A stretch of 64,000 nt of DNA, taken from IMG/VR virus record IMGVR_UViG_3300048999_000192, positions 91,099 through 155,098 of that record; one strand, written 5' to 3'. The DNA is from a virus. Below are positions 4,508 through 25,538 of this stretch, piece after piece (positions within the stretch are counted from its first letter, which is position 1; the number at the start of each line of letters is the position of its first letter). The translations under genes and the position numbers were made by a program. The notes below the pieces were generated by a model. That model searched no databases and had not been told where the DNA came from. It saw only the letters and a program-made list of their open reading frames with translations.

Positions 4508-4557
4508 GCTGTCCACGAGCCCCACCACACCCCGAAAGGGTGGAGGTGGGGCTTCGT
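4508..4557 (+). terminator. Hairpin closing the accessory island, overlapping a degenerate late-promoter motif and the next RBS
   Basis: ACGAGCCCCACC...GGTGGGGCTTCGT; GCTGTC-N20-GAAAGGGTGG at 4508-4543. Confidence 0.55.
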
Positions 4558-7500
4558 GCGTCCTGGGGAAGAGTCGGCTCGGTCCGACGCTGGCAAGCAG
4601 ACCGTCTGGCCGGTCGCTGTCGGCGGCGGCCTGGTGGACATGTGCGCCCACCACAAGACGATCCACGAGGGGCACTCCAACCTCGCCAACCAGATCGCCG
4701 CCCAGACCGGCCTGGCGCAGGAGGAGCACGAGGAGCTCACCCCGCACACCGGCACCTGCGTGGAGTGCAAGCGCCGCGCGGGCAAGGGCGAGCTGATGCA
4801 CTCGCTCGACTCGGCGCTGCCGACCGGATATCGCAAGAAGCAGGATCAGAGCGACCGTACGCCCCGCAGGCCGTTCGAGCCGGGCAAGACCCGCACCAAG
4901 CCCCTGGAGCCCCTCCCGCCGTCTCTGAACGCCGTGCAGGCCTCCTCCGAGGAGATGCGCCCGCTGCCGGGAGCGCTCTACCACGTCACCACGGCCCGGG
5001 ACGCGGTGCTGGCCCACGGCCTGAAGAACCGCACCGAGCTCGGCCAGCAGTACGGCCACGGCCTCGGTGGCGGCCGGGACGACACGATCTCCCTGACGAC
5101 CCACCGGCCGACGGCCGAGCACCTGCTGCACTCCCTGCACGAGTACCACGACGTGCTCAACGGCAAGATCAAGCTGGCCGACCTGAAGGAGAAGGCCCGG
5201 CAGGGAGTCGGGGCCGAGAAGCCCTATGACTACATGCTGAAGGACCACGCTGACGAGGATCTCGCCGCCGCCGACAAGGGCCGGGCGATCGAGCACCGGA
5301 TGCACGACCGCTCCGAGGTGGGCGAGGACTGGAAGCCCCTGGACGAGGGCATGCATGGCACCGGCCCCCAGGGGGAGTACCACCTCCACATGGCCTGGGA
5401 CCGGCCGCTGGACCGCTCGGAGCTGCTCCACAAGCGTGATGACGTCTACAAGAAGTTCTCCTGGGGGCGTCAGGGCGCGGGTGGTCACCCCGACCCCCTG
5501 TTCATCGCCAACGACCCCGGCGAGTTCGTCAAGAAGGACCCGGGCCAGTTCGCCCTGATGCACGTGCGCCCTCACGAGGGAGCGCACGGGATCCAGATGA
5601 ACGACCGCACCGAGGGCACCGACGCGGGGGAGTGGCGGGCGCTGTCGGGCAAGGATCTCCACGTCGTGCACCACGAGGGCCGAGAGGCCATCACGCCCCG
5701 TACGGCCGCCGCTGACCACCACGTCTTCTATCACGTCACGGACAATCCGAACTTCGAGCTGAGCACCACCCACCGGCCGCACCTGAACCTGGAGGGCGGT
5801 GAGGACGAGCACCGCGAGCCAGGCATCCACATGGCTGACCACGAGGGCATCAACCGCTGGATGGGCACCGGCGGGTACATCAGGCCGTACATGGTGGAGC
5901 TGCACGCCCACCCCGAGCTCGACGACCACCCCGACACCGAGCACGGCTTCGCCCGCGAGCGTTACGTCCCGGCCAAGCACTACGACAAGCTGAAGGTCCA
6001 CCGCGTGATCCCGCTCGACGCCTGGGACCGCGAGCAGGGCGGTTATGGCCACATGGAGCAGTCGCTGGGCTCGGAGTACGACACCGGCGCGCCCATCGCC
6101 AGCTCACACGAGGACCGGCCCTACCGGCCCCGGACGCCCTACACCGGCCCGGACGCCCGCGAGATGACACCGGAGCAGCACCAGCACCACACCGACCGCT
6201 ACGACCGGTTCATGAGCGACCGCATCAGCCGTCAGGCCGCCTCGTATCCGATCAAGTACACCCGAATGACCCAGAACGGGTACGAGGACGTCGAGGACGA
6301 GATCGAGGGCCCGCTGTTCCACGGCAGCCGCTCCAAGCGCCTGCAGCCGGGCGACATGATCACCAAGGGCCGCAAGACCAATCCCTGGGGCGACCAGGGC
6401 CCCAAGAGCCAGACGGTCCACTTCACCGTGCACCACGACACCGCGCGGGACTACGCCGACCAGGCGGGCGGCCACGTCTATGAGGTCGAGCCGACGGGGG
6501 AGTTCAAGCACGACTACTCCGGCGGCGACTTCAAGACCGCGCACCCGCTGCGCGTCGTGCGCATGGTGCCGCGTTCGGAGTGGGAGGCCTCCAAGGAGGC
6601 CAGCCGCCGTACGGCCATGACTCCGGAGCGCCGCGCCGAGATCGAGCGCATCCGGCAGGAGCGCAAGAACCGTCCCCGCCGCCCGGCCGGTCAGCCGCGC
6701 GCCGACGCGTTCTCGCACCTGTTCACGCCGATCCCCGAGCACGAGCTGGAGGAGCAGCGCCAGGCGCGTATGCCCAAGCCCGAGCCGATCAACGACAAGA
6801 CCTACTCGATCGGCGACGTCAGCAAGCACTACGAGTGGGAGGGCTTCGACCCGTACGAGATCGAGCACCTCGTGCATCACCCGGAGCACGCCCAGTTCAC
6901 CCACGAGGACGTGCCGGTGCACAGCCTGCGCCACATCACCGAGCACGGCGAGCTCGTCAAGCCGCCGTCCTACCGCGACATCGCCGACCAGGGGGATGAC
7001 GAGCAGGAGCGGCTCGGGGAGCTGGAGCGCGGGCACGACGACGGCGCCCACATCCCGCCCATCGTCGTCGTCCGCCACGGCGAGCACCACATCATCGCCG
7101 ACGGCTCCCACCGGGCGGCCATCGCGGCCGAGCGCGGCCACACCCACATCCCGGCCTTCGTCACCGAGCGGACGATCATGCCCAAGACCGGTCGCATGGG
7201 CGATGGCGGCCCCGACCCATTCGAGCGTACGGCCGCGATGCACAACCCCAACGCCAAGGCGGGGCAGGCCGAGGACGAGTGGTACCACGGCAGCCCGCAC
7301 GACTTCGACAGCTTCAGTGACACCGGGTCAAGTAACGACACCGAGGACCACGTCAACCACTGGAACGTGCTCCTGGGCAACCACTTCACTGCGACCCACA
7401 ACGTGGCGCATGACTTCAGCCTGGGCCTGCACCACGCCTCGGACGCGAACGGCAACGACGACGCCGAGGAGCCGCTGGGCCACGTCATCCACGCCAGGCT

Positions 7501-9211
7501 GCACATCAAGCGGCCCAAGGTCTACAAGTCCGAGCACGACATGGACCAGGAGGTCCACGAGCACGAGGTGAAGCGCGGCAACCTGCTCGACCCGCACCTG
7601 CCCGAGACGCCGCACGAGGACGCCGACGATGACGAGTGGGACGACTACTACGCCGACGCCGGGCACGCGCGGGTCTACCGGGGTGACAGCCATGGGCCCT
7701 TCGGCCCGAACGAGCCGGACCCGAACGTGGCTCACGGCTTCCACCCCAAGGCGACCGGCTGGCTGAACCACCACCCGGACAAGGAGGGCATCGCCGCCCG
7801 CCACAAGGCCCGGCTGATCAAGCAGGGCTACGACGGCATCGTCTACGGCAATGAGTTCGAGCGGGCCGACGCCGGGGGCAAGGAGAAGTCCGCCATCGCC
7901 TTCCATCCGCATCAGGTCGAGATCACCCAGCACCACTACGGCCGCACCGGCCAGTGCCTGAACCCCGAGGAGTGCGCCCGGCAGCGCGCGGCCGACCACG
8001 ACCCGGGCCAGCTCGCGCTACCCATGGAGCACACTTCGGCCCTGACGGCGGGCGGCGTCAGCCGTCTCGCACTGCCGCTTCCGGCGGAGTGCTGGAGCCG
8101 GTACCGCTCGACTCTGGGCGACCGTACGGCCTCCTGGGACGACGATGACGAGTGGAGCGAGGACGAGACCTTCCACTGCCCGGCGTGCGGCGAGGACCAT
8201 GAGGACGAAGAGACGCGCGACAACCACATGATGGCCCATACCGACTGGGACAGGGTGCATCCCAAGCTTCCCGACACCCTGCACCGGGGCATGGCCGTCT
8301 CGCTGCCGGACGAAGTCCATGACGTCGTCCACGATGAGTCGCGGCCGTCGGCCGAGCGGGCGCAAGCGCTGGCCGACCACGTCAAGAAGCGTGGGCTGGG
8401 CATGCACTTCACGGACGACAAGCAGCAGGCCGCGCACTACTCGCACGTCTACCACCAGCCTGGCGACACCCACGTGATCGTGCACTCGCGCAAGCCGGAC
8501 ATGCATCACATCGAGACCGACCCCGGTGAGCTCGAATCCCAGCAGGTCATCGGTTATGGCCAGCACGATGACAACGAGATCCCGATTCGCTCCGGCGCGC
8601 CCGTGCACGCCACCGGGATCTCCTGGAAGCACGAGGATCCCAAGGCCGACTGGCATACGCACAACTTCGGAAGGTCCATGGAAATGACCGCGATGCGCAA
8701 GCAGGCCCACGACAGCGGTGACGGTCAGCGGATCTTCCACTGCCCGTTCTGCGGTGCTGGCCAGGTGATCGCCCGTTCGGACGGCACCACCGAGTGCGAG
8801 TTCTGCCACCAGGCCTTCACGGTCCAGGTGCAGCCGCAGTTCAACAGCTTCCCGCAGACCGACCCGACCACCGGCCTGCCGATCATGATCCCGGGCATGC
8901 CGGGCCAGATCGATGCCCCTGGCACGCCGCCAGGGGCTCCAGGAGGCGCTCTGCCGCCCGGAGCGGACGAGGAGTCGGACAACCCGTTCGCGGCCGACAG
9001 CGGTGACGAGAGCGGCCCTCCCGGGGCCGATGACGGTGGGGACGACTCCGGCGATGGCGGGGACGATAACAAGCCGGACTTCCTGAAGGGCTCCAGCTTC
9101 CGGACGGCCTCGGGCGACCTGCTCACCGAGGCGGCCTACACCCGCCACCTCGCGCTGCGCTTCTCGGCCAACCCTGAGAAGATGATCGAACTGCTGCGGA
9201 GCGGGCGATGA
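4556..9211 (+). CDS. Polyvalent polyprotein: about five ADP-ribosyltransferase-like domains (one Arr-like, one ART-PolyVal-like), a ParB/Srx domain and a C-terminal Zn ribbon
   Basis: LYHVT..ISLTT..GEW; FYHVT..GIHM..ERY; LFHGS..VHFT..VYEVEPTG; PPIVV..IADGSHRAA; WYHGS..GNHFT..GYDGIVY; LHRG..GMHFT..NEI; CPFC..CEFC. Confidence 0.75.
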   Translation: MRPGEESARSDAGKQTVWPVAVGGGLVDMCAHHKTIHEGHSNLANQIAAQTGLAQEEHEELTPHTGTCVECKRRAGKGELMHSLDSALPTGYRKKQDQSDRTPRRPFEPGKTRTKPLEPLPPSLNAVQASSEEMRPLPGALYHVTTARDAVLAHGLKNRTELGQQYGHGLGGGRDDTISLTTHRPTAEHLLHSLHEYHDVLNGKIKLADLKEKARQGVGAEKPYDYMLKDHADEDLAAADKGRAIEHRMHDRSEVGEDWKPLDEGMHGTGPQGEYHLHMAWDRPLDRSELLHKRDDVYKKFSWGRQGAGGHPDPLFIANDPGEFVKKDPGQFALMHVRPHEGAHGIQMNDRTEGTDAGEWRALSGKDLHVVHHEGREAITPRTAAADHHVFYHVTDNPNFELSTTHRPHLNLEGGEDEHREPGIHMADHEGINRWMGTGGYIRPYMVELHAHPELDDHPDTEHGFARERYVPAKHYDKLKVHRVIPLDAWDREQGGYGHMEQSLGSEYDTGAPIASSHEDRPYRPRTPYTGPDAREMTPEQHQHHTDRYDRFMSDRISRQAASYPIKYTRMTQNGYEDVEDEIEGPLFHGSRSKRLQPGDMITKGRKTNPWGDQGPKSQTVHFTVHHDTARDYADQAGGHVYEVEPTGEFKHDYSGGDFKTAHPLRVVRMVPRSEWEASKEASRRTAMTPERRAEIERIRQERKNRPRRPAGQPRADAFSHLFTPIPEHELEEQRQARMPKPEPINDKTYSIGDVSKHYEWEGFDPYEIEHLVHHPEHAQFTHEDVPVHSLRHITEHGELVKPPSYRDIADQGDDEQERLGELERGHDDGAHIPPIVVVRHGEHHIIADGSHRAAIAAERGHTHIPAFVTERTIMPKTGRMGDGGPDPFERTAAMHNPNAKAGQAEDEWYHGSPHDFDSFSDTGSSNDTEDHVNHWNVLLGNHFTATHNVAHDFSLGLHHASDANGNDDAEEPLGHVIHARLHIKRPKVYKSEHDMDQEVHEHEVKRGNLLDPHLPETPHEDADDDEWDDYYADAGHARVYRGDSHGPFGPNEPDPNVAHGFHPKATGWLNHHPDKEGIAARHKARLIKQGYDGIVYGNEFERADAGGKEKSAIAFHPHQVEITQHHYGRTGQCLNPEECARQRAADHDPGQLALPMEHTSALTAGGVSRLALPLPAECWSRYRSTLGDRTASWDDDDEWSEDETFHCPACGEDHEDEETRDNHMMAHTDWDRVHPKLPDTLHRGMAVSLPDEVHDVVHDESRPSAERAQALADHVKKRGLGMHFTDDKQQAAHYSHVYHQPGDTHVIVHSRKPDMHHIETDPGELESQQVIGYGQHDDNEIPIRSGAPVHATGISWKHEDPKADWHTHNFGRSMEMTAMRKQAHDSGDGQRIFHCPFCGAGQVIARSDGTTECEFCHQAFTVQVQPQFNSFPQTDPTTGLPIMIPGMPGQIDAPGTPPGAPGGALPPGADEESDNPFAADSGDESGPPGADDGGDDSGDGGDDNKPDFLKGSSFRTASGDLLTEAAYTRHLALRFSANPEKMIELLRSGR

Positions 9212-9378
9212 AGGTCTGGGTCCTGGTCGACTTCACCGGCCCCTCCGGCCAGCGGTACACCAAAGGCAGCCAGCTCACCCTCCCCAATGACACGCCCGAG
9301 CAGCAGGCCTACGTCTCGTCACTGATCCGCTACGGCATCGTGACGACGGCCAAGCCCGCGACAGGAGCCACCACGTGA
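9208..9378 (+). CDS. 56-aa protein coupled between polyprotein and portal; not in ORF track
   Basis: ATGA and GTGA overlaps on both sides; MKVWVLVDFTGPSGQRYTKGSQLTLP... Confidence 0.65.
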   Translation: MKVWVLVDFTGPSGQRYTKGSQLTLPNDTPEQQAYVSSLIRYGIVTTAKPATGATT

Positions 9379-11573
9379 CCGACGACTTCGCGAACCGCAT
9401 CGCCGGTGTCCAGAGCGCCATGAAGGCCAAGTCCCCGTTCTCTCGTAAGCGGGCGCAGGACACCGGCACCGGCGAGGCGGCCGAGATGCGCCGCAACCGC
9501 GCCGTGAACAAGAAGGTCGCCGCCGCAGGGTCCGGCAGCGACATCTCCTTCGCTACCGGCCGCCCGAGAGATCCCCTTTTCTACTGGAAGCAAAATAACC
9601 TTCCATATGACTTCGGTAAGCATGAGGAGCTGCGGAAGGTAAGAGCATTCTGTCGCCTTCTGTACCAGACTGACTCAATTATCGGTTCGGCGATCGACAT
9701 CTACTCCAAGTGGCCGCTGATCGGCATGGAGCTGTCGTGCAAGGACCAGAAGCTGACCGACTTCTACACCAACCTTTTCGGATTCGGTGAGGACGCCGAC
9801 GACAGCTCGCTCGACTACGAGGCCTTCCTGCCCCGCGTCGGCCGGGAGTACTGGACCGTCGGTGAGGCGTGGCCATTCGCCACGTTCAACCCGATGCTCG
9901 GTGTCTGGGAGGACGAGGAGCTCCTGCAGCCGGACGACGTCGATGTCCAGCGCAGCCCGTTCCTGAAGGACCCGAGGTTCTTCATCCGGCTGCCCGAGAC
10001 CATCCGCCGCCTGATGCAGACCCGCCAGCCAGCCTGGGAATACAACAAGCTGATGCAGGCGTATCCCGAGCTGGTCAACTACACCCACGAGAACCAGCTC
10101 ATGCCGGTCTCCAACATCCTGCTGCAGCAGATCAAGTTCGAAGGCGACACGTTCAACCCGCGCGGTGTCCCGCTGCTGACCCGCGCCATGCGCCCGGTGA
10201 TGCAGCAGGAGATGCTCAACGCGGCCATGGACGCCATCGCCGACCGGATGTACACCCCGCTCATCCTGGTCAAGCTCGGCGCGTCCGCCTCTGACCTGGG
10301 CACCAACGCCCCGTGGATCCCGACCGGTGATGACCTCGCCGATTTCGAGGAGGCGCTGGACGCGGCGCTGGCCGCCGACTTCCGCGCGCTGATCTACAAC
10401 TTCGCGATCGACATCGAGTCCGTGTTCGGCCGGGAGCAGATGCCCGACCTGACGCCGGACTTCGAACGACTCGAAGACAAGATCCTCCAGACGTTCGGCC
10501 TGTCCCGGACACTCCTGACCGGTGCCTCGGCCGGTGAGACCTACGCCGCCGACGCGCTGAACCGCGACCTGATCACCCAGCTCCTGACGCACTACCAGAA
10601 GCTGATCAAGCATCACTGGCGGCAGCGGGCGCTGGTCGTCGCCGAGGCCCAGGAACATTTCGACTATGACGTCCGCAATGGGAAGCGCTACGTCAAGATG
10701 GAAGAAATCCTCGAAGTCGACGAGGAGACCGGCGACGAGCGCATCATCGAGCAGCCCAAGCTGCTGATCCCCGACCTGCACATGCAGACGATGAACCTGC
10801 GGGACGAGGAGCAGGAGCGCCAGTTCATGGAGGCGCTGCGTCAGGGCGGCGTGCCGATCTCCATGAAGACCAGGGTCCGTAACCTCCCGATCGACCTGGA
10901 CGAGGAGATCGAGCGCAGCCAGGAGGAGGCCGTCCAGCTCATCGTCTCCGAGGCCGAGACCCGCAAGCGTGCCTACCAGGCGCTGCGCAACAACGGCCTG
11001 CCGATCCCGGACGACCTGCGCACCGAGTTCGAGGCCCTCGCCCAGCAGGCGCAGCAGCCCAGCCCGGCACTGTCGGCTGGCCAGCCGCAGATGATCCCCC
11101 AGCTCGGCCAGGACCCGCAGGCCGCCGACACGCCCAACCTCGCCCCGACGCAGCAGGACTTCCAGAACGACCCGCAGGACGAGTCCTCGGTGATGGCCCC
11201 GGTCATCCCGATGCCGATGGCTCCCCCGGGCGGAGAGGAAGAGGGCGACGCCCGGCCGGAGGAGTCCGACGAGGAGCGCGACGGCATGCCCACCTCGGCC
11301 GTGCTCTACCGGAAGGCCCAGAGCATGCGCACGGTGGCGGCCACCCGGCACGCCGACGTGGTCGAGGCCGAGCAGAAGCTGGCCCGCGAGCAGGCCTGGG
11401 CCGAGTGGGAGGTCAATCGCGTCGAGGCCGCCGCCAACGGCACCGACATGCCCGCGACGCCGCCAGAGGACCTGACCGCCTACACGGTGCCCGCCCAGAT
11501 GCGCGGCCCGATGCACATCGGCCAGCGGCGCAACCTCGATCGGGACTGGAAGGCCGCGCTCGACGACGACTGA
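9375..11573 (+). CDS. Portal protein
   Basis: 732 aa; GREYWTVGEAW, RGVPLL.RA, YTPLILVKLG motifs typical of portals; RPRDPLFYWKQNNLPYD resembles Bxz1-type portals (recall). Confidence 0.8.
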   Translation: MTDDFANRIAGVQSAMKAKSPFSRKRAQDTGTGEAAEMRRNRAVNKKVAAAGSGSDISFATGRPRDPLFYWKQNNLPYDFGKHEELRKVRAFCRLLYQTDSIIGSAIDIYSKWPLIGMELSCKDQKLTDFYTNLFGFGEDADDSSLDYEAFLPRVGREYWTVGEAWPFATFNPMLGVWEDEELLQPDDVDVQRSPFLKDPRFFIRLPETIRRLMQTRQPAWEYNKLMQAYPELVNYTHENQLMPVSNILLQQIKFEGDTFNPRGVPLLTRAMRPVMQQEMLNAAMDAIADRMYTPLILVKLGASASDLGTNAPWIPTGDDLADFEEALDAALAADFRALIYNFAIDIESVFGREQMPDLTPDFERLEDKILQTFGLSRTLLTGASAGETYAADALNRDLITQLLTHYQKLIKHHWRQRALVVAEAQEHFDYDVRNGKRYVKMEEILEVDEETGDERIIEQPKLLIPDLHMQTMNLRDEEQERQFMEALRQGGVPISMKTRVRNLPIDLDEEIERSQEEAVQLIVSEAETRKRAYQALRNNGLPIPDDLRTEFEALAQQAQQPSPALSAGQPQMIPQLGQDPQAADTPNLAPTQQDFQNDPQDESSVMAPVIPMPMAPPGGEEEGDARPEESDEERDGMPTSAVLYRKAQSMRTVAATRHADVVEAEQKLAREQAWAEWEVNRVEAAANGTDMPATPPEDLTAYTVPAQMRGPMHIGQRRNLDRDWKAALDDD

Positions 11574-11621: not shown

Positions 11622-14600
11622 ATGCGGATGCAGCGTACGGCCCGGCAGCACACCACGCTCCAGGCGACGGCAGGGGTCAACAGCGAGGACTACTTTGACT
11701 TCCGGCCCAAGCAGCGGGTGATGACGGCCGACGGGTACCCGGGCCGCGTCGAAGCCGTGCACGATGGCCCGCACGCCGGGAGCGAGGCGTACGAGGTCGT
11801 CCTGGACGGCGGCATGGGCGGTGGGCTGTACGCCTCCAGCCAGCTCCACGCGCTCGCTGACGACGCTCACACGGCCGCCGGGGACTACCCCGAGCTGGAG
11901 GACGTCCTCTCCGCCCGGCCCGACCCGGCCAAGCAGGTCGTGATGGCCAAGAAGGCCGCGCGCAAGAGGGCGTCGACCCTCCCCGACGATCACCCCGACA
12001 AGGTCTACCTCCGCTTCGGCCACTGGCCGAAGAACGAGCGTTCCGCGAATGGCGTCACGGGCCACCCAGAGGACGGGGTGAGCGTCTACGACCTTGACCA
12101 CAAGGGCGAGCCCATGGACCCGGACCCCAACCTCAGCCGGGGCCACGAGCATGACGAGTCTTGCGATCCGGACTGCGATCTCGATAGCTGGAACGAGGAC
12201 TACGGCAACGACACCCGCGAGGAGATGAACGGCCGGGTCTATCGCGCGGAGAAGGCGCGGGCCAACGGTCACGACTACCGGGGCGAGGTCGGCCACCTGG
12301 TCAAGGGCAAGATGACGGGCATCGGCCACGATGGTGAGCCGCTGCTGAACAACGTCAAGCGCGTCGGTGACTGGATCGACCACCGGCACATGTTCATCCC
12401 GACGGCGAGCCCGCACCGGCTGGCCAGGGGTGAATACGACGAGGACTACGAGCCGCCGTCGTCCAAGCTGGCCACCACCCAGAACGGCACCCGGATCGAC
12501 GGCCACGGTGAGGCCCCGCACGAGGTGCGCGCCAAGGACCCCAACGGCTACGACGCCAAGAGCACCGAGGGCGACCCGGACCCGCTCATGTCCAAGCCGC
12601 TGACCAAGAAGGACGAGGTCGGCGCGCACGGGGGCGAGCTCGGCAAGGGGATGTCCGGCGTCTCCTTCGAGGGCGCGATGTCCCCCATGCAGAAGCAGAA
12701 GATCGAGGACCGCGAGGACGCCCGGCAGGACGTGGTCGATCAGCATTCGCAGGTGAACGACGCCCGGCGCGACCGCACCGACGTCGGCGACGTCCAGCGG
12801 GTCGAGGACCCGGCGTACGCCAAGTACCTGCAGTCCCTGAACGCGCTCACCGTACGGGCCGACTGGGACGACCCGGAGCACGGCGCGGAGTGGCGGCGTC
12901 CCTGGGACGTGATGCCCGTCCACCACGACGACGGCCGCTGGCACGACCCCGAGCTGGACAAGAACTACGAGCACGACACGGCCGAGCCTGAGGCCGACGA
13001 CTCCTCCACGGCCCACGCCGCGCACCTGCACCTGCCGAACCCGGAGGAGGACCCGGACGCGCTGGCCAGCCACATGGTCGACGCACACGGCTACGACCTG
13101 GACAAGGTCAAGCAGATGATGATGGTCCACCGGCTGATGAGCGGCCAGCACGAGATGGACCACGAGACCGAGCCGGGTGGCATGGGCCTGCACCCCGACG
13201 ACTTCTCCCTCCCGCACGACCACCCGGACCGCTGGCTGGAGCACGGGTCGATCCCGGGGCCGGAGGGCGGCGTCGAGCAGGCCGGAGCCCGTGGCGACAC
13301 CGGCCACGCGCTCGACAGCAGCAGGCCGTTCGAGCTCAAGCCCTGGCATATGAACTACTCGCTGAGCTCGCTGGCCGACCCGTACGCCCTGGTCGCCTCG
13401 GCCGCCCAGGACCGGGACCTGGGATTCCAGCTCACCGCCGCCTGGACCGACGTTCGCAACAAGGCCAAGCGGATCCGGTCAGAGGGCAAGGTCAGGATCA
13501 CCCTGGCCAGTGACGGCCTGGTGGCTGGTGAGGTGCAGGGGGACCACCAGACGTATGAGACCGGCATCCAGCGCCTGCCCGGCTCCCGCCACGGCGTGGC
13601 CACCTGGAGCTGCGGCTGTAAGTGGGGCGCCTACCACTGGGGCGCCAGCGACGACTTCAGCCGCTTCGCCGGTCGGATGTGCTCTCACGCCCTGGCCCTG
13701 CAGTACGAGGCCCAGAGTCGGGGGATGTTCGGCAAGACCGTCGAGGTCGACACCTCCAAGCCGGACTGGGTGCCGCCGCGCGTGGTGGTCAAGTACAACC
13801 CCGACACCGGCCACAGCGACTTCGCCAAGTCCTCCTCACTGGTCACCCCCGAGCTGTCCCCGCTGCAGATCTTCTGCGCGTACGCGGGCAACGACGGGGA
13901 GACCGCCGACCAGATCACCTGCCTGCTGCACACGGCCGGGCTGGTCGAGGGGTACTCCAACAGCCCGTGGGGCGAGCCGATCGCCGAGGTGCCGCCCAAG
14001 CCGTACGGGGCGACCCAGCCCGCCAACAAGTGGGAGGACCCGGGCAGCGCCGGGTTCCTCGCCACGCCCGACCCCGAGGACTGGGGCGGTCTGGGGCAGA
14101 ACAACCAGATGTACTCCACGTCCAGCCTGGACGAGGCGGTGTTCGAGCCCGTCCTGGCCAGTCCCCAGGGGGCGTATGAAGATCAGGACAGTCCTGCCGA
14201 TCCGGAGGGCCTGGAAGCGACCCTGCACGACACTCCCGAGCCAGCTCTTCCCGAGACCGACGGCGGCCGGGAGGACATGGTCGGCGAGCACGCCGAGGAC
14301 CTCACGCCGGACGACCAGTCGATGATGACGGTCGGCAACCAGATGGGCGGGGCCGACGAGGTCCTGGACGAGACCCAGAACACCACCCCGCAGGACCTGG
14401 ACGACGTCGTGGCGCGCTTCCAGGCCTCCGCCGGGGCCAAGGCCATCATGGCCGACGCCGGGACTCCCAGCGGGCCTGCAGCGCGCGAGGGGGCCTCCGC
14501 CGCGCCCTCGGACGGCGACATCGCCGCCCACGCGCGCCAGGTGCTGGCCCTGAAGGCCTTCAGCCCGGCCGAGCAGGCCTCCCTGATCAACGAGGGCGTC

Positions 14601-14690
14601 GGGGAGCGCGCGGCCAACTTCGACAAGCTCGACATCGCCGGGACGCACTACGCCGACCTGGACGACGAGGACGACACATGGCTGAGCTGA
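11622..14690 (+). CDS. Second head-region polyprotein (SH3-like N-terminus, possible R-S-E ART-like module, SWIM-type Zn finger)
   Basis: YLRFG..GVSVY..GEPLL; WSCGCKW..CSHALA; RTA, HTAA, KRAS, LTAA, HTAG junctions. Confidence 0.7.
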   Translation: MRMQRTARQHTTLQATAGVNSEDYFDFRPKQRVMTADGYPGRVEAVHDGPHAGSEAYEVVLDGGMGGGLYASSQLHALADDAHTAAGDYPELEDVLSARPDPAKQVVMAKKAARKRASTLPDDHPDKVYLRFGHWPKNERSANGVTGHPEDGVSVYDLDHKGEPMDPDPNLSRGHEHDESCDPDCDLDSWNEDYGNDTREEMNGRVYRAEKARANGHDYRGEVGHLVKGKMTGIGHDGEPLLNNVKRVGDWIDHRHMFIPTASPHRLARGEYDEDYEPPSSKLATTQNGTRIDGHGEAPHEVRAKDPNGYDAKSTEGDPDPLMSKPLTKKDEVGAHGGELGKGMSGVSFEGAMSPMQKQKIEDREDARQDVVDQHSQVNDARRDRTDVGDVQRVEDPAYAKYLQSLNALTVRADWDDPEHGAEWRRPWDVMPVHHDDGRWHDPELDKNYEHDTAEPEADDSSTAHAAHLHLPNPEEDPDALASHMVDAHGYDLDKVKQMMMVHRLMSGQHEMDHETEPGGMGLHPDDFSLPHDHPDRWLEHGSIPGPEGGVEQAGARGDTGHALDSSRPFELKPWHMNYSLSSLADPYALVASAAQDRDLGFQLTAAWTDVRNKAKRIRSEGKVRITLASDGLVAGEVQGDHQTYETGIQRLPGSRHGVATWSCGCKWGAYHWGASDDFSRFAGRMCSHALALQYEAQSRGMFGKTVEVDTSKPDWVPPRVVVKYNPDTGHSDFAKSSSLVTPELSPLQIFCAYAGNDGETADQITCLLHTAGLVEGYSNSPWGEPIAEVPPKPYGATQPANKWEDPGSAGFLATPDPEDWGGLGQNNQMYSTSSLDEAVFEPVLASPQGAYEDQDSPADPEGLEATLHDTPEPALPETDGGREDMVGEHAEDLTPDDQSMMTVGNQMGGADEVLDETQNTTPQDLDDVVARFQASAGAKAIMADAGTPSGPAAREGASAAPSDGDIAAHARQVLALKAFSPAEQASLINEGVGERAANFDKLDIAGTHYADLDDEDDTWLS

Positions 14691-18837: not shown

Positions 18838-18920
18838 GTGCGTGACGTCCTGAGAGCCTTCAGGTAGCTTTGGGGGAGAGCACCGATCGACCCGCCCCCG
18901 GGTCCGGCTGTGCACCCCCA

Positions 18921-18954
18921 GAAGAGCCCCTGCCACCCCCGGCAGGGGCTCTTC
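18921..18954 (+). terminator. Hairpin terminator closing the accessory island
   Basis: GAAGAGCCCCTGCC...GGCAGGGGCTCTTC. Confidence 0.75.
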
Positions 18955-18990
18955 GCTGTGCAGGCCCCTCTCACCCCGAGGAAGAGGTGA
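18955..18990 (+). promoter_or_regulatory. Putative late promoter
   Basis: GCTGTG-N20-GAAGAGGTGA. Confidence 0.7.
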
Positions 18991-19004
18991 CAGAGGGGAA
19001 GGTC

Positions 19005-22000
19005 ATGCTGCGGAAGATCGCGACGCTGGAAACGCTGGAGGCGTACCGGGTCCCGGCGCACGCCGACGCACGCGCCCTGCGCAAGGCCGCCCACCGGGTG
19101 AGCTTCGAGTACACCCCCCGCCCGGGGTACCTCTACGTGCGTTCGCGGGCCATCAGCTCCCGGTGCAACGACAACTTCGACGAGTTCCCAGCCGAGGAGA
19201 TCGCGAAGGCCTACGCGACCTTCAAGGGCAAGCCGGTGTTCGTCAACCACCACAACGACGACCACCGGCGGATGCGTGGCGTGATCATCGACGCCGCACT
19301 GCATCAGGATCGCAACCCCGACGGCACCCCGGACACCTGGGCCGAGGTCCTGATGGAGGTCGACGCCAAGACCTTCCCCAAGCTCGCCAAGGCGATCCTG
19401 GCCGGTGAGGTCGACCGTACGAGCATGGGCTGCGACGTCCAGCTCTCGGTCTGCTCGGCGTGCGGCAACAAGGCCACCAACCCGGCGGAGTACTGCCAGC
19501 ACATCCCGGCCATGAAGGGCCAGCGCATCTTCCGCGCCACCGCCTCCGGCCAGCGCGAGGGGCACCTGGTCCGGGAGATCTGCTACGGCCTGGGCTTCTT
19601 CGAGAACTCCCTGCTCGTCGAGGAGCCCGCCGACCCCACCGCCTACTTCCTCGGCGTGGACGACCGTGGCATGAGGGCGACGGCCACTCAGCACGGCGAA
19701 GAGCCGCCCGGATGGATCAACGACGTCAAGGACCAGGCGGATGAGCTGGCGAGCCGTAACGGCCACAGCATCTCCTGGAAGTACCGAGGCGAGCCCCAGT
19801 GGAAGAGCAGCTCGGGTTACGTCGCAGGCTGGCAGGGCGAATGCGCCAACGATGGGTGTGATGCTCCGGCCAGTCAGACCAGCCGGGCTCACACGGACAA
19901 GGTCCGCACCATCAGCATCCGCGAGGACCAGCCCGGCGAGCTGAAGGACATGATGCCGCCGTTCCTGCGGCGACGCTGCAAGGGGACCACGGTGGAGTCC
20001 AGCCGGAAGACGGCGGCCGAAGATCACTGGGCCATGCCGATCTTCCAGCACTTGAAGGACGCGCACGGCCTGGATGACGATCAGATCGCCGAGGGCATGC
20101 TCGCCGCCGGAGCCGAGCCGAACATGAACCAGGGCATCAAGCTCGACCATCTGTTCCACGCCCACAAGAACCTGCACGGCGGGGACTACCAGACACCGAC
20201 CGGCGCGCAGCGGCACGGGCACACCCCCGAGGACCCGCTGATCTCCAGCGAGTTCAGGCCCTCACGCATGCAGATGAATCAGTCGGAGATCTACAACGAC
20301 AAGCCCGCCTGGGGACCGAGGAGTCTCGGCCCGTACCGGATGCGGGCGGACGAATACGGCGATTTCAAGCCTCTTCGGCAGTCGCAGAACGCCAAGACGG
20401 CCGACGTCCGCCACAACCCGCAGTACGAGGGCACCCATTGCCTGATGTGCGGCGACCCGGTTCGCTGGAATTCCAACCCGGCCAAGCAGAGCCTGCCCAG
20501 CGGGGGCTGGTACCACCACGACAGCATCAAGCGCGATCACCACGCGCTCCCGGCTGACCCGGAGGCCGTGATGAACGACGTCCCTCGCCAGGACGCCCAG
20601 CGAGACCAGATCGACGCGCAGATCCGCGAGCAGTACGGCTTCGGCCCCAAGCGGCACAAGGACATGCCGCTGGACCCCTTCGTATCCGCCTACGCGCCCG
20701 AGCTGGACGAACTCGGCCCGGTCGAGGCCGCCGCCGGTCCGAAGTACCCCGACCCGGCCGATCACCCGTTCTTCAAGAAGAACCCGATCAACCATCAGCA
20801 CATCGTCGACACCTACAACGAATCCGACGAGGGCACGCGGGCGCAGGGCAAGCGCTGGTACCCCGACGCGCACATCCTGGCCAAGGCGATCGACCCCGAG
20901 GGCAACGCGGCGCGCGGCGCTGGCGTGCTGTCGGCCTACTCCCCACAGACCTCCTGGCCGGTCAACGCCATGAACGCCGCCCGGTCCCTGCAGCGTGGCA
21001 AGGCCATGCAAAAGGGCGAGGGCCAGATCATGGCCAGTCACGCCAAGAGCGCCCAGCGCATCATCGAAGGCGAGCACCACAGCGACGTCTTCAAGGGCCC
21101 CAAGATCCGGGCGTTCGCCCACCTGATCGAGCACGGCGGTGATGACCACTCCGTCGTGGTCGACCGGCACGCGCTCTCGGTGGCCATGGGCAAGCGCGTC
21201 AGCAAGGACGACCTCGCCGACGCGCCGCTGAGCACCCCGCACTACTACGGCCACGTCGAGCGGGCCTACCAGGACGCGGCCAAGCAACTGTCCGGCCAGC
21301 ACGGTGAGACGATCCACCCGCACGAGGTGCAGGCGACCACCTGGCTGCAGCAGCAGAAGCGCAACGCGGTCGACAACGAGACCGCCCGGGGCGGCCAGGG
21401 CAAGGGCCTGATCACCCGGGACAAGAACGACTGGCGCGACTGGGAGAACTACCACCAGAAGAACCACCCGGACCTGCCCAAGAGCCTGCACACCACCAAC
21501 CCGCACGCCCCCAAGACCGAGGCGATGCGCAAGGGTGCGCCGTTCGCGGGCTATGAGGACTTCGCGGCGTGTGTCGCGGCCAACCAGGACAAGGACGACC
21601 CCGAGGCCTACTGCGGCTCGATCAAGCACAAGGTCGAGGGTGCCCAGCACACCGCCGCGCACAGGGTCTACGTCGACCAGGCCGAGGGCAGTCACGGCCG
21701 GATGGTCACCTTCAGCGGCGAGGACAAGGGCGGCTACCTCAGCCGGGGCGACGGCACGTGGATGGCCGAGAACGACAACGGCTCGGTGGTGCACGAGCAC
21801 CGCGACCACAAGCGGGCCCTGCGCGGCCTGGCCGATCACTACGGCCTGACCGGCGATCTCGACGTCGAGTACACACACGAGGGCACCGGGAACAGGAAGA
21901 ACTTCACCGTCCCGGGCAAGACGGCCGCGCTGAACGACGTCGTGGCCCCGCCCGAGGTCGACACGCTGCGGGATGAGGAGTGCCCGGTCTGCGGTGAGGT

Positions 22001-23522
22001 CGAGGTCTACGACGGGGAGCGGTGCCCGGTCTGCGGGTTCGTCGCGCCGCCGGAGATGTTCCGCGACCCGGACCTGGAGATGGCCAAGTCGATCGACCTG
22101 CGTCAGGACCAGCAGGCGCAGGCCGGTGACCCGGCGCCAGGCCAGGCCAACCCGGACGTGCCCGGTGGCGGCCTGGTCGACCCGTCCCAGCTCGGCGATG
22201 ACCCGCTGGCCGACCAGCTCCAGCATCCGGACCAGCTCGGCCCGAATGGCGAGATGGGCGAGCCCGGTACGCCAGGCGACGGCACGCCGGACCTGTTCTG
22301 CCCCGCCTGCGGCGAGGGCTTCGACGCGGGCCAGCCGATGACCACCGATGGTGACCCCGCCACGCTGGACGCCAGCGGCCCGGCCGAGGGCACCCCGTGC
22401 CCGAACTGCGGGATGTCCACCCTGCTCTCCCCGAACGACATGGAGGGCATGGGCATCGGCCCCGACGGCGAGCAGGCCGTCGCTGAGGAGGCCGAGGAGA
22501 TGGGCGACCGGCCGATGGATGCCGGAACCCCCGAAGAGGACCCGGAGGCTCCCCAGGAGGGTGAGGGGCCGCCAGAGCAGCAAGAGGAGGAGGGGCCGCC
22601 GACCGAGGAGGACGACGATTCCGACGAGCCTGCTGTGGACGAGGACGACCAGCCCTCGAAGAAGCGAGACGACAAGAATGCAAAGGGAGCGTCCATGAGC
22701 AAGTCCGTCGAGGCGGCGCTGGCGGCGAACACGGCCGCTGTCGGTAGCCTCATGCGCGAGCTGCGCATCGTCCGAGCGCAGAACGACCTGATCGCCAAGG
22801 CAGCCGGTCTGGAGGGCGAGTTCTCCGAGATCCGCCGTCAGGCCGACATCAACAACCCGGCCAGCCCCGTGCCGGACCCGGGCGAGCAGGCCCCGTCCGA
22901 GACCACGGAAGAGGCGGTCACCCCTGAGGCGGCCGACGACCCGCAGCGTCCCGGCATGACCCCGGGCTCTGTCGGCGGTGTCCCGGCCGAGCAGGTCGAC
23001 ACCCCGCTGCGCCCTGGCGTCACCCTCCCGGCGGCACCGGCCACCAACCTGGTCGACGTCACCGCGCCGGTCGCGGGCACCAACACCGGCGAGCTCTCGC
23101 CGGAGCAGACCCGCATCGAGACCGACGTGCGCGTGGGCGACCCGATGGCGAACGCGAACAGCGACGAGTCCAAGATGTTCCCGTGGACCATCGGTGCTCA
23201 GAACGCCAACCGGACCATGGCCTCCATGCGTCTGGCCGAGCTGCGCATCGCGGCCAACCTCGCCCCTGCGGGCGACCGGTTCGCGCTGGCGGCCTCGATC
23301 GAGACCGACGCCAACCTCCCGGACGCCGCCCTGGCGACCGAGATCCGCACCCTGGAGGCCGTCTCCCGTACGGCCGCCCGCCAGCCGCGCCCGACCAACC
23401 TGGTCCCGCGTGCGGCGGCCACCGAAGGCCGTACGGCCCCGAGCCTGGCTCCCCAGCCGGTCGGTGCCCCGGTCGGCGGCGGCGGGTACGACGACACGGC
23501 CGACTCCGACCTGTTCTTCTGA
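19005..23522 (+). CDS. Capsid maturation (prohead) protease fused to cargo domains, Zn ribbons and a scaffold-like tail
   Basis: NDNFDEF..FKGKPVFVNH..RTSMGC..CSACGN..YCQH protease motifs; internal HhH-glycosylase-like module; lies just upstream of capsid genes; start taken as ATG 19005. Confidence 0.8.
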   Translation: MLRKIATLETLEAYRVPAHADARALRKAAHRVSFEYTPRPGYLYVRSRAISSRCNDNFDEFPAEEIAKAYATFKGKPVFVNHHNDDHRRMRGVIIDAALHQDRNPDGTPDTWAEVLMEVDAKTFPKLAKAILAGEVDRTSMGCDVQLSVCSACGNKATNPAEYCQHIPAMKGQRIFRATASGQREGHLVREICYGLGFFENSLLVEEPADPTAYFLGVDDRGMRATATQHGEEPPGWINDVKDQADELASRNGHSISWKYRGEPQWKSSSGYVAGWQGECANDGCDAPASQTSRAHTDKVRTISIREDQPGELKDMMPPFLRRRCKGTTVESSRKTAAEDHWAMPIFQHLKDAHGLDDDQIAEGMLAAGAEPNMNQGIKLDHLFHAHKNLHGGDYQTPTGAQRHGHTPEDPLISSEFRPSRMQMNQSEIYNDKPAWGPRSLGPYRMRADEYGDFKPLRQSQNAKTADVRHNPQYEGTHCLMCGDPVRWNSNPAKQSLPSGGWYHHDSIKRDHHALPADPEAVMNDVPRQDAQRDQIDAQIREQYGFGPKRHKDMPLDPFVSAYAPELDELGPVEAAAGPKYPDPADHPFFKKNPINHQHIVDTYNESDEGTRAQGKRWYPDAHILAKAIDPEGNAARGAGVLSAYSPQTSWPVNAMNAARSLQRGKAMQKGEGQIMASHAKSAQRIIEGEHHSDVFKGPKIRAFAHLIEHGGDDHSVVVDRHALSVAMGKRVSKDDLADAPLSTPHYYGHVERAYQDAAKQLSGQHGETIHPHEVQATTWLQQQKRNAVDNETARGGQGKGLITRDKNDWRDWENYHQKNHPDLPKSLHTTNPHAPKTEAMRKGAPFAGYEDFAACVAANQDKDDPEAYCGSIKHKVEGAQHTAAHRVYVDQAEGSHGRMVTFSGEDKGGYLSRGDGTWMAENDNGSVVHEHRDHKRALRGLADHYGLTGDLDVEYTHEGTGNRKNFTVPGKTAALNDVVAPPEVDTLRDEECPVCGEVEVYDGERCPVCGFVAPPEMFRDPDLEMAKSIDLRQDQQAQAGDPAPGQANPDVPGGGLVDPSQLGDDPLADQLQHPDQLGPNGEMGEPGTPGDGTPDLFCPACGEGFDAGQPMTTDGDPATLDASGPAEGTPCPNCGMSTLLSPNDMEGMGIGPDGEQAVAEEAEEMGDRPMDAGTPEEDPEAPQEGEGPPEQQEEEGPPTEEDDDSDEPAVDEDDQPSKKRDDKNAKGASMSKSVEAALAANTAAVGSLMRELRIVRAQNDLIAKAAGLEGEFSEIRRQADINNPASPVPDPGEQAPSETTEEAVTPEAADDPQRPGMTPGSVGGVPAEQVDTPLRPGVTLPAAPATNLVDVTAPVAGTNTGELSPEQTRIETDVRVGDPMANANSDESKMFPWTIGAQNANRTMASMRLAELRIAANLAPAGDRFALAASIETDANLPDAALATEIRTLEAVSRTAARQPRPTNLVPRAAATEGRTAPSLAPQPVGAPVGGGGYDDTADSDLFF

Positions 23523-23933: not shown

Positions 23934-24006
23934 AGGAGCCCGTCTCGCATCGGACATACGAGCGGACGGCAAAGTTGTCCGATAAGAAGAGATGGGAGGT
24001 GCAGGG

Positions 24007-24546
24007 ATGCTGCGGACTCGGCTGAATAACTCGTACATCAAGCGGACGATTCGACCGCTGTACGGGTTCACTCAGGCCACGCCCCAGAGCGTCTTCCTGG
24101 ACCCGTCGTGGGATCGCTCCACGCCGATCTACCCGGGCATGGCGCTGGTCAAGACGACCGGCGACCAGGTCACGCTGTGCGGTGCAGGTTCCGGTGCGGG
24201 TGGGGTTGGCACGGCTGCCAACAACATCCCGGTCGGCCTGTGCGGCCACTACATCGGTGGCGACGGCATTGACGAGCTGCTCGACGTCGGCATGAACATG
24301 CTGGCGAACTGGGTGCTCGCCCCCGACGCTCAGTTCGAGATCCTCGCCCCGGCGTTCGACACCACGGCCGACTGGGCCGGGGCGGACAACGGCGACGGCA
24401 CCGAGGACCTGATCTACGTCGCCACGGCCGCCGGATTCATCGGGAAGCTCACGCTGACCGGTGTCCACTCGCCGACGACCGCGCCGGTGGCGCGCCTCGT
24501 CAAGGCGAACTCCGCGACCAAGATCACGATTGCGGGGGTCCGATGA
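24007..24546 (+). CDS. Capsid decoration/minor capsid protein
   Basis: Directly upstream of and coupled to the major capsid gene; IYPGM motif; GGAGG before ATG 24007. Confidence 0.65.
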   Translation: MLRTRLNNSYIKRTIRPLYGFTQATPQSVFLDPSWDRSTPIYPGMALVKTTGDQVTLCGAGSGAGGVGTAANNIPVGLCGHYIGGDGIDELLDVGMNMLANWVLAPDAQFEILAPAFDTTADWAGADNGDGTEDLIYVATAAGFIGKLTLTGVHSPTTAPVARLVKANSATKITIAGVR

Positions 24547-25538
24547 GCAGCTACCTGATGCCGTCGGCAAACGGCAGCCTGCGCGGCAAGGTCGCGAAGA
24601 AGTCTGACGACTACGTCGGCCAGATCCTGGCGCGGCGCGAGGGTGGGGCAGGCCCCCTCTCGCACCAGGCCAAGGTCCAGAAGATGGCCATGATCCTCAA
24701 CGACGAGGTCAACGGCTTCCGCCGCCTCGGCGTCGGGATGGTGGGGCCCATCCAGCTCAAGCTGCGCTACCAGGGCATCACCCGGAACGTTCTCGTCGAG
24801 GACGCCGTCACCCCCGGCACGCCGGTGGAGTACGACGTCTGGGACGACCTCGGCCAGGCGTACCTGATGTCGGGCACGGAGGGCGAAGTTCGCGTAACGC
24901 CCTTCGAGGGCAAGAGGATCCCGGTGCGCTTCTGGCGCATCGCGAGCCGCCCGGCGATCCGCAAGGAAGACCTCTACTACCTGCGGATCAACGCCGTCGA
25001 GCAGGCCCAGGACGAGACCAAGCAGGCCATCCTGAAGGCGGAAGACTCCCGCCTCCTGGTGCTCCTGCAGGCCGCCGTGACGGACTACGCGTCGCGCCCG
25101 GACCACACGGTCACGCCCAACCACAACATCACCGAGGCGTCGGGCTACCTGACCCCGGGCTCGCTGTACAGCGCGGTCGCGATGACCGACATGCACGAGC
25201 TCCAGTCGGCCCGCATCCTCATCAACCCGTTCGACTTCCGCGACCTCTACCGGTGGGACATCAACGCCACCGGCTGGGCGTTCAAGGACCGGGTGGTCGC
25301 CGGTGAGACCATCACGTCGTTCGGTGAATTCCAGATCCAAAGGTCGATCATCGTCCCCCAGGGGAAGATCTTCCTGACCCCGGAGCCCAATTTCCTGGGC
25401 GTCTTCCCGGTGCTCTACTCGCTCGATGTCGAGGAGAACCACCACGTGGAAGCGTTCTGGAAGGGATGGGTCTTCGACGAGATGGTCTCCATGGCCATTC
25501 TCAACCCGCGCGGAATCGCGACCATCACCAAGTCCTGA
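24543..25538 (+). CDS. Major capsid protein (HK97 fold, Bxz1-like)
   Basis: 331 aa; MVGPIQLKLRYQGITRNVL, AEDSRLL, MAILNPRGI; followed by terminator. Confidence 0.85.
   Translation: MSSYLMPSANGSLRGKVAKKSDDYVGQILARREGGAGPLSHQAKVQKMAMILNDEVNGFRRLGVGMVGPIQLKLRYQGITRNVLVEDAVTPGTPVEYDVWDDLGQAYLMSGTEGEVRVTPFEGKRIPVRFWRIASRPAIRKEDLYYLRINAVEQAQDETKQAILKAEDSRLLVLLQAAVTDYASRPDHTVTPNHNITEASGYLTPGSLYSAVAMTDMHELQSARILINPFDFRDLYRWDINATGWAFKDRVVAGETITSFGEFQIQRSIIVPQGKIFLTPEPNFLGVFPVLYSLDVEENHHVEAFWKGWVFDEMVSMAILNPRGIATITKS

Follow-up and report, generated by a model that had tools for sequence, protein, structure and literature searches.

The window analysed here is a stretch of 64,000 nucleotides, the right-hand part (positions 91,099 to 155,098) of the virus record IMGVR_UViG_3300048999_000192, which is 155,098 bp long and rated complete. 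Its G+C content is about 67%, and the source is a soil actinobacterial phage with a genome of 155 kb. The subject of this study is a head gene at 19005-23522 (+) of the window. Its product of 1505 amino acids (aa) begins with a prohead protease, ends with a putative capsid scaffold, and carries between the two about 750 aa of inserted modules, one of which is predicted to adopt the helix-hairpin-helix (HhH) fold of HhH-GPD DNA glycosylases. The initial annotation of the window had proposed a prohead protease with a long inserted cargo, and this is borne out by the single gene found there. On balance, we lean towards reading the product as a capsid-assembly polyprotein, composed of a protease, cargo modules, a linker with the motif VDTLR and two zinc ribbons, an acidic tract and a scaffold, which would be packaged, cut and delivered.

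The gene and its position in the head module

A single open reading frame (ORF) spans 18870-23522 (+). We placed the start at 19005 because a purine-rich ribosome-binding site lies ahead of the ATG there and the homologues all begin with MLRK. A database search for the polyprotein returned 541 homologues of 827-2634 aa, many of them on contigs of 150-165 kb, with more than 500 metagenomic relatives among them. A megablast search with the gene in 50,697 phage records gave no match; known relatives exist at the protein level only. Three of the relatives (P0111-P0113) are on Streptomyces-associated contigs of 150 kb, which hint at possible hosts. The nearest known phages are large actinobacterial myoviruses, namely Rhodococcus phage E3 and the Bxz1/Cali group.

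The head module is ordered as portal, a gene for a 1022-aa protein, several small genes, the polyprotein gene, a cement protein and the major capsid protein (MCP) (Table 1). The location of the polyprotein gene between portal and MCP is the same in E3, Cali and the metagenomic relatives. Between the polyprotein gene and the MCP gene, no separate scaffold gene is present in this genome.

Table 1. Parts of the polyprotein gene and related features (positions in the window unless a locus is named; pLDDT, predicted local distance difference test; AF2, AlphaFold model).
Feature	Residues	Position	Strand	Evidence or remark
Protease-cargo-linker-scaffold polyprotein, whole gene	1-1505	19005..23522	+	ORF, translation, >540 homologues, synteny
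Prohead (capsid maturation) protease domain	1-228	19005..19688	+	PHROG, BLASTP, fold model
Variable His-rich segment	229-470	19689..20414	+	Absent from P0002; in 1-20 of 120 homologues
Module B, small, CxxC..W-HH..HH, zinc-finger-like	471-544	20415..20636	+	pLDDT 84-93
DUF7178 domain with predicted HhH-GPD glycosylase fold	577-838	20733..21518	+	Pfam, AF2 model, VIA, Foldseek
Mini-module PFAGYEDFAACV..DPEAYCGSI	846-880	21540..21644	+	Recurs in other phage head proteins
Module D, beta-rich	884-972	21654..21920	+	pLDDT 83-94; absent from P0003
Conserved linker (APPEVDTLR) and two zinc ribbons	975-1140	21927..22424	+	Common to E3 gp77 and Cali gp93
Acidic low-complexity tract	1141-1230	22425..22694	+	Translation; acidic tracts aligned in homologues
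Putative scaffold unit: coiled coil, NPASPVPDP, conserved C-terminal region, acidic-hydrophobic ..DLFF tail	1231-1505	22695..23522	+	
Shine-Dalgarno-like AAGGGAG, five bases, ATG of Met1231 (at 22695)		22683..22697	+	DNA
Polyvalent-type protein, 1551 aa, ADP-ribosyltransferase domains		4556..9211	+	Pfam ART-PolyVal, Arr-ms
Portal protein		9375..11573	+	phrog_2833, E 6e-149
Cement protein		23992-24546		Between polyprotein gene and MCP
Major capsid protein		24543..25538	+	phrog_2522, E 6e-103
Mini-module in other phages		L003:7001-7120; L094:2501-2668		

The N-terminal protease domain

Profile, sequence and fold comparisons all relate the N-terminus to head maturation proteases. It matches phrog_18299 'head maturation protease' at residues 58-209 (E 4.8e-22) and phrog_2774 at residues 17-265, and its identity to E3 and the Bxz1/Cali group is 43-47% over about 200 residues, with 43-46% to E3 gp77 and Cali gp93 by BLASTP. 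In a model of residues 1-1140 (the long model), the segment 30-228 is folded with a pLDDT of 80-94. Structural comparison of this segment with VIA gave T4 gp21 (5JBL; Z 10.1, root-mean-square deviation 3.3, 127 residues aligned), followed by the herpesvirus proteases of varicella-zoster virus (VZV; 1VZV, Z 9.7), human cytomegalovirus (HCMV; Z 7.4) and Kaposi's sarcoma-associated herpesvirus (KSHV; Z 6.7). Foldseek gave probabilities of 0.92-0.99 to gp21 and to the proteases of herpes simplex virus 2, pseudorabies virus and KSHV, and of 0.75-0.84 to those of Epstein-Barr virus, VZV and HCMV. Judged by the model, the protease has the beta-barrel fold of T4 gp21 and the herpesvirus assemblins. 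The end of the domain had been placed near 19670 (residue ~222), which agrees both with the folded segment and with the BLASTP similarity to E3 and Cali, which stops at about residue 215.

His82 (in NHH) and Ser140 (in TSMG) are near-invariant in 65 sequences and represent a candidate catalytic pair; a non-significant hhalign alignment puts them opposite NH85 and S140 of T4 gp21. The comparison of the protease profile with the single sequences of HK97 gp4 and T4 gp21 by hhalign was not significant, and no Pfam model recognised the protease domain in module scans at E values up to 10. The assignment rests on the fold and the PHROG matches.

Within the protease, a cluster of Cys150, Cys153, Cys164 and His166 (19452-19502, +) is near-invariant and probably forms a zinc site. 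We know of no comparable Cys/His site in T4 gp21 or in the herpesvirus proteases.

Exchangeable modules between the protease and a conserved linker

Three pieces are common to this protein, E3 gp77 (895 aa) and Cali gp93 (1286 aa): the protease, a linker of the form APxEVDTLR, and the C-terminal region. The linker lies at residue 211 in E3 gp77, at 697 in Cali gp93 and at 972 here. That is, it follows the protease immediately in E3, about 480 aa later in Cali and about 750 aa later in this phage. The insert separating the protease from the APPEVDTLR linker therefore measures about 750 aa (residues 216-971), in agreement with the cargo length first proposed. The ~480-aa insert of Cali gp93 showed no similarity to the cargo of this phage by BLASTP, and E3 gp77 has no insert; neither protein matched the DUF7178 region here. 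Cali gp93 (NC_011271, L002:7899-11759) carries the note 'tape measure'. With a prohead protease as its N-terminus and the gene located just before the capsid genes, it is probably misannotated.

The middle consists of exchangeable modules and is not one structural unit. Among the best 120 homologues, 118 have the protease, 114 DUF7178 and 100 the VDTLR/zinc-ribbon region. Module 471-544 is present in 46; the mini-module and module 884-972 are less common (about 40 and about 25 homologues, respectively), and residues 280-460 were found in a single homologue. Modules are gained and lost even between near-identical relatives: one such relative (P0002) lacks residues ~224-458, and another, 92% identical (P0003), lacks ~224-560 and 881-975. 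A single unit conserved in all homologues was not seen, in line with the variability expected of this region. Among relatives, 160 to 1215 aa separate the end of the protease from the DRH motif of DUF7178, and 130 to 550 aa separate DRH from VDTLR. In relatives, the insertion slot holds a NUDIX domain, one or two GNAT domains, or an Arr-like (Arr-ms) ADP-ribosyltransferase piece, with DUF7178 as the final enzyme-type domain ahead of the linker. The long model shows the same division, with folded blocks at 471-544, 577-838, 850-873, 884-972, 991-1019 and 1088-1140, and low-confidence linkers at 545-576, 839-849, 874-883, 973-990 and 1020-1087. A fold search with this model returned mainly protease and DUF7178 matches.

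The smaller modules differ in how well they are defined. Several small His/Cys modules had been noted after the protease. Module B (471-544) indeed folds confidently, whereas the His-rich segment 229-470, with a pLDDT mostly below 50, is a low-confidence model and is rare among relatives; it is probably two modules, split at the motif KTAA335. Module B is duplicated in one relative (P0027) and belongs to no known family by Pfam (E up to 10); ESM Atlas gave no usable match. Pfam scans of the separate modules at the same threshold returned nothing for residues 216-569 and 801-971. The mini-module, already singled out in the initial annotation, is real and recurs in other phage head proteins. Its ~35 aa (..GYEDFAACV..DPEAYCGSI..) share 85% identity with a part of Mycobacterium phage ScoobyDoobyDoo gp97, and the same module makes up the N-terminus of Haloferax virus HFTV1 gp17, a 'P2 gpO-like scaffolding/protease'. 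By sequence it appears to be a small head-protein module common to bacterial and archaeal viruses. For module D, the fold search gave weak SH2-like matches only (Z 4.2-4.9), which we do not take as an assignment.

This variability bears on one alternative, according to which the middle is no more than an elongated scaffold spacer, helping to determine how big a large capsid becomes or what volume it encloses, with the enzyme-like domain surviving as a decayed relic. In favour of a spacer, long protease-scaffold proteins are typical of this lineage of large myoviruses, as E3 and Cali illustrate. However, the length varies from about 900 to more than 2400 aa among relatives of similar genome size (150-165 kb), near-identical phages differ by whole modules, and DUF7178 shows strong conservation, including polar positions that are invariant. 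We therefore regard the spacer as very improbable.

The DUF7178 domain and its predicted glycosylase fold

The most constant of the modules is the domain of about 260 aa that had been outlined at ~20730-21520. It corresponds to residues 577-838, is confidently folded, and contains a match to Pfam DUF7178 (PF23802) at residues 598-782 (123.8 bits vs a cut-off of 27, E 1.1e-35). The domain occurs as a single copy in the phage genome. An AF2 model built from 38 sequences is all-helical with a pLDDT of 94.5. When this model was compared with 48,161 chains by VIA, the best 22 were all HhH-GPD proteins (Z 10.9-5.5), and the next chain was unrelated (Z 4.2). The first match was Tm1821 Ogg (3N0U; Z 10.9 over 174 residues), followed by QNG1/DUF2419 (Z 8.6), MagIII (Z 8.3) and AGOG (Z 8.0), and then EndoIII, OGG1, Mag1, AlkA, MutY, MIG and ROS1 with Z down to 5.5. 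The HhH-GPD result was reproduced with the long model. In Foldseek, the only non-trivial matches were 8-oxoguanine glycosylases (MjOgg, probability 0.97; AGOG, 0.84).

The predicted layout of the putative active site runs from a helix (692-695) through a GPK hairpin (698-700), a second helix (699-710) and the loop GGDDHSVVV to Asp720, which opens a helix (721-728). In the model, this succession of short helix, hairpin, helix, Gly-rich loop and Asp at a helix start corresponds to the signature layout of HhH-GPD proteins. Asp720 (VVVDRHA) is invariant and Lys700 is present in at least 90% of the sequences, in stand-alone and fused members alike. The two residues are 20 positions apart; in EndoIII, MjOgg and OGG1 the Lys-to-Asp spacing is 18-19. 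Like the Ogg2/AGOG/EndoIII-type glycosylases (3N0U, 3KNT, 1PU6, 2ABK) and QNG1/DUF2419, the domain is predicted to have a two-lobed helical fold with an HhH, a Gly-rich loop and an Asp. Unlike the glycosylases, it has no sequence-profile link to them, shows no recognisable iron-sulfur cluster motif, and belongs to a phage/mobile-element family. The substrate of DUF7178 might be a nucleoside, as for QNG1; TGT/DpdA families (7-deazaguanine modification), sought as a link to the QNG1-like match, were absent from the genome.

A domain of this fold could also serve a purely structural role. The modules would then be internal head proteins that organise or anchor the packaged DNA, similar to an inner body, with the HhH domain binding DNA and having no enzymatic function. 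It is established that HhH motifs bind DNA without sequence preference, several of the modules are small zinc-binding or His-rich pieces with no enzyme signature, and the topology of the chain puts the modules inside the procapsid. Nevertheless, we think such a role unlikely. Mere DNA binding would not need the invariant Asp720 and the near-invariant Lys700, which are kept in both fused and stand-alone forms. Moreover, clear enzymes (NUDIX, GNAT, Arr-like) occupy the same slot in relatives, and stand-alone DUF7178 genes are found in early, non-structural regions of small phages.

The linker region, the putative scaffold unit and a possible nested gene

In the region after the cargo, P982 and VDTLR are invariant or nearly so, and the same holds for the cysteines of the two zinc ribbons (C993/C996/C1007/C1010 and C1099/C1102/C1132/C1135). 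The two CxxC pairs counted in the initial annotation are thus in fact four, making up two ribbons. The VDTLR/zinc-ribbon region is a candidate for the part that targets the chain to the capsid or anchors it there.

Sequence comparison indicates that the C-terminal unit from Met1231 is an independent part and a putative capsid scaffold, and its C-terminal similarity reaches E3 and Cali. A scan for relatives by the scaffold part alone returned one locus only; an alignment-based scan of 80 related viral contigs was used instead, and 60 loci were classified. The unit (coiled coil, NPAQPVPDP, C-tail) was in the same frame as protease and cargo in 25 of these loci and formed a separate downstream ORF in the other 35. 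At split loci, the long protein ends just past the second zinc ribbon, and the scaffold ORF lies just upstream of the cement and MCP genes. Because the scaffold is separate in 35/60 loci, encapsidation is more likely to proceed via the protease and the VDTLR/zinc-ribbon region than via the fusion to the scaffold.

The codon of Met1231 is preceded by a Shine-Dalgarno-like sequence (Table 1). A Met codon with such a match (at least a 4-mer) was present at the join in 25/25 fused relatives, compared with 186/673 (28%) of other internal Met codons, and in one relative (L012) a different amino-acid sequence encodes the identical AGGGAG. This suggests that Met1231 may be the internal start of a nested scaffold gene, from which a scaffold-only product would be made. 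Such a product would also remove the difficulty over the amount of cargo per capsid.

Near the C-terminus, a motif R-x-A(P/G) is conserved 25-45 residues before the acidic-hydrophobic tail (23410-23522, +), also in E3 and Cali. The tails end in ..DLFF, ..SLFI or ..YLHL. The placement of R-x-A is reminiscent of herpesviruses, in which the maturation site precedes the capsid-binding tail, except that here the Ala is followed by Pro.

Candidate cleavage motifs at the module junctions

If the chain is processed, cut sites would be expected between modules. Motifs of the type [K/R/H]-[T/Q/E]-A-[A/S/G] are located at module edges (KTAA335, KTAD464, HTAA882 and KTAA972). All four lie within low-pLDDT linkers, and the indels of P0002 and P0003 have their break points at these motifs. 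Directly after the protease, most relatives show ..RG[LM]K..AS[RK].TA[AS]; ahead of the VDTLR linker, most show basic-basic-x-Ala followed by YGET. E3 also has KRKQA-YGETEAP, and a cut there would part its protease from its scaffold. Herpesvirus assemblins cut between Ala and Ser, and the Ala junction motifs here recall these sites.

Counted over the genome, [KRH][TQE]A[ASG] occurred 23 times vs 4.3 expected in five large head-region genes, a set of 'polyprotein genes' selected partly with the motif known, and 25 times vs 18.3 expected in the remaining 167 genes. One of the five is the 1551-aa gene, in which [KR]TA[AS] was observed 4 times vs 0.11 expected. Counts across homologues are not independent of each other. 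From this analysis, an Ala-ended cleavage code appears to be a reasonable hypothesis. A stricter version, in which the motif is confined to linkers throughout the family, was rejected: in 190 homologues its density was 2.5 per 1000 aa in the protease and DUF7178 cores vs 2.6 outside them.

Other large head-region genes are also rich in basic-[T/Q/E]-Ala. They lie at 87388-91523 of the genome (left of the window) and at 422-1696 and 11622-14690 of the window, and one motif-rich protein of 758 aa has 8 copies. The 1551-aa gene, directly upstream of the portal gene in the same head module, resembles a classical polyvalent protein.

DUF7178 in other proteins and phages

The DUF7178 family comprises 1839 cluster representatives at E <=0.001, many of them long multidomain proteins, and some of its members also carry alpha/beta-hydrolase or kinase-like domains. 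Proteins bearing the same fold in our viral structure library are annotated as ART-PolyVal-like, 'large polyvalent protein associated', N-acetyltransferase or helicase. Four proteins of about 1000 aa (P0180, P0191, P0203 and P0206) have DUF7178 at the N-terminus together with an Abhydrolase_8 or PI3/PI4-kinase-like piece. They have no recognisable protease and represent a second type of carrier for DUF7178.

Stand-alone copies of about 200 aa are located in early or non-structural regions of small phages, and some GenBank records label them 'glycosylase'. One so labelled, gp79 of Streptomyces phage Triumph (L009:2782-3399), stands at the head of the right-arm operon and has acetyltransferase and Ocr-like anti-restriction genes nearby, which hints at a counter-defence neighbourhood. 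In roseophage SIO1, the stand-alone copy is in the DNA-metabolism part of the genome, near the thymidylate synthase and primase genes. The occurrence of stand-alone copies in early regions suggests that the activity of DUF7178 is wanted early in infection. We infer that small phages may meet this need by early expression, and large phages by carriage in the head.

An early role is in conflict with another alternative, in which the enzyme acts late in the producing cell near the procapsid, for instance in cleaning up DNA before or during packaging, and is then degraded or expelled together with the scaffold. Fusion to the protease would in that case serve co-expression and localisation only. 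Scaffold and protease fragments are known to leave the capsid commonly after cleavage (HK97, P2, T4), and a repair-type fold (Ogg, EndoIII, MagIII) suits DNA quality control. On the other hand, the stand-alone homologues are early-region and not late genes, and the companion ADP-ribosyltransferase-like, GNAT and NUDIX domains are typical host-directed polyvalent effectors (PMC5512222). In addition, DUF7178 was absent from 14 control cellular genomes, and for this reason it does not appear to be ordinary repair equipment. We consider late action in the producing cell improbable.

A probable capsid-assembly polyprotein that may deliver its cargo

The observations of the initial annotation on the gene and its modules are thus confirmed, and its interpretation as a whole is partly supported. 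Because the DUF7178 domain, the protease and the scaffold lie in one chain, the glycosylase-fold domain is probably loaded into the head and delivered with the DNA. In the favoured scheme of a packaged polyprotein, the chain would co-assemble within the procapsid. On maturation, the protease would cut the linkers, probably at the short basic-[T/Q/E]-Ala motifs; the scaffold pieces would exit, and the cargo would be retained in the head and pass into the next host along with the DNA. DUF7178, the constant cargo, would be an N-glycosylase of HhH-GPD fold with a conserved Lys/Asp pair similar to that of bifunctional glycosylase/lyases. Its action would fall in the very first phase of infection, with host DNA, modified DNA or possibly a nucleotide as the target. 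From Met1231, the phage probably makes a shorter protein as well, consisting of the scaffold only, comparable to the arrangement in lambda C/Nu3 and herpesvirus UL26/UL26.5.

Several results weigh against parts of this scheme. For the glycosylase, the sequence model of the HhH-GPD family (PF00730) found nothing in the phage genome at E 0.01, yet it matched in 14/14 control genomes. Pfam at E values up to 10 gave no match besides DUF7178 in the domain, the search of the DUF7178 profile against solved structures gave nothing useful (nor did a sequence search of these structures with the whole protein), and hhalign of the profile against E. coli endonuclease III (Nth) was uninformative. The catalytic residues are equated by motif spacing and predicted secondary structure, not by superposition. 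For the cleavage code, the choice of the five genes and the even density of the motif in cores and linkers reduce the force of the enrichment, and the Pro that follows R-x-A in this lineage is unusual after a cleavage site. For the nested gene, the Shine-Dalgarno-like signal is in many relatives partly a by-product of Glu/Asp codons. Were the full-length chain the only scaffold, a very large protein load per capsid would be implied. Finally, the literature yielded no proteomic, biochemical or structural data on this protein or its close relatives. Because the sequence profiles do not connect, our claim for DUF7178 is an HhH-GPD fold with a plausible active site and not membership of a named family. 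The original link of the VDRH motif to the HhH glycosylase superfamily accordingly stands as far as the fold and the invariant Asp are concerned, but not at the level of the PF00730 sequence model.

A broader version of the scheme, which we put forward tentatively and as somewhat short of an even chance, takes this gene as one part of a general cargo-delivery system. The protease gene and several neighbouring giant head genes would carry interchangeable enzymes, including the glycosylase-fold domain, ADP-ribosyltransferases, NUDIX, GNAT and ParB-like domains. One protease would release them all by way of a common basic-[T/Q/E]-Ala code, and their injection would disarm the host right as infection begins, with DUF7178 as a new injected DNA-directed weapon or counter-defence.

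Relation to known systems and significance

Protease-scaffold fusions, internal head proteins trimmed by a protease, and multidomain polyvalent effectors are all established. As in herpesvirus UL26/UL26.5, lambda C/Nu3 and P2 gpO, an N-terminal serine protease of predicted assemblin fold and a putative C-terminal scaffold share one frame here, and the scaffold also exists separately (in 35/60 relatives) or as a putative nested product. In those systems, only a short linker separates protease and scaffold, whereas the corresponding stretch of this protein accommodates some 750 aa of exchangeable folded modules, among them an enzyme fold. Closer at hand, E3 gp77 and Cali/Bxz1 gp93 of the cluster C-type myoviruses agree with this protein in gene position, protease, VDTLR linker and C-terminal region.

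Polyvalent proteins are late-expressed, head-associated polypeptides that unite several unrelated effector-type domains with a processing peptidase (PMC5512222; Iyer, Burroughs, Anand, de Souza, Aravind 2017). In that survey, assemblin-like peptidases are rare and always C-terminal, and the text does not mention a glycosylase (PMC5512222). The gene studied here shares with polyvalent proteins the head gene context and the peptidase within the chain, and its relatives combine NUDIX, GNAT, Arr-like and DUF7178 domains. It differs in that the peptidase is N-terminal, is the phage's own prohead protease and is joined to the scaffold; moreover, DUF7178 is the sole assignable enzyme fold in this protein, whereas polyvalent proteins hold several effector domains. 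The internal proteins and Alt of T4 and the inner body of phiKZ are targeted to the interior of the procapsid, where the prohead protease trims them at short motifs, and they remain in the head until they are injected with the DNA (PMC5512222). They are encoded by separate genes with short targeting peptides and Glu-based motifs, while here the cargo lies within the protease chain and the candidate motif is Ala-ended.

What sets this gene apart is therefore the combination of an N-terminal prohead protease, cargo in the linker, and a scaffold at the end or next door, kept in hundreds of uncultured actinobacterial phages. In the literature on DUF7178, Bxz1-type proteases and scaffolds, E3 virion proteins and packaged glycosylases, we did not find this arrangement described. 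The domain analysis provides a first working hypothesis for the widespread DUF7178 family, that of an HhH-GPD N-glycosylase with a Lys/Asp pair. The fused and split scaffolds, together with the module swaps, amount to a natural experiment on targeting to the capsid interior, and what is learned from it could be applied to the loading of phage heads with foreign proteins. If the cargo is indeed packaged and released, enzymes would be loaded by writing them into the protease chain that every procapsid takes up, which would explain how a large group of uncultured soil phages, with more than 500 relatives, delivers early enzymes.

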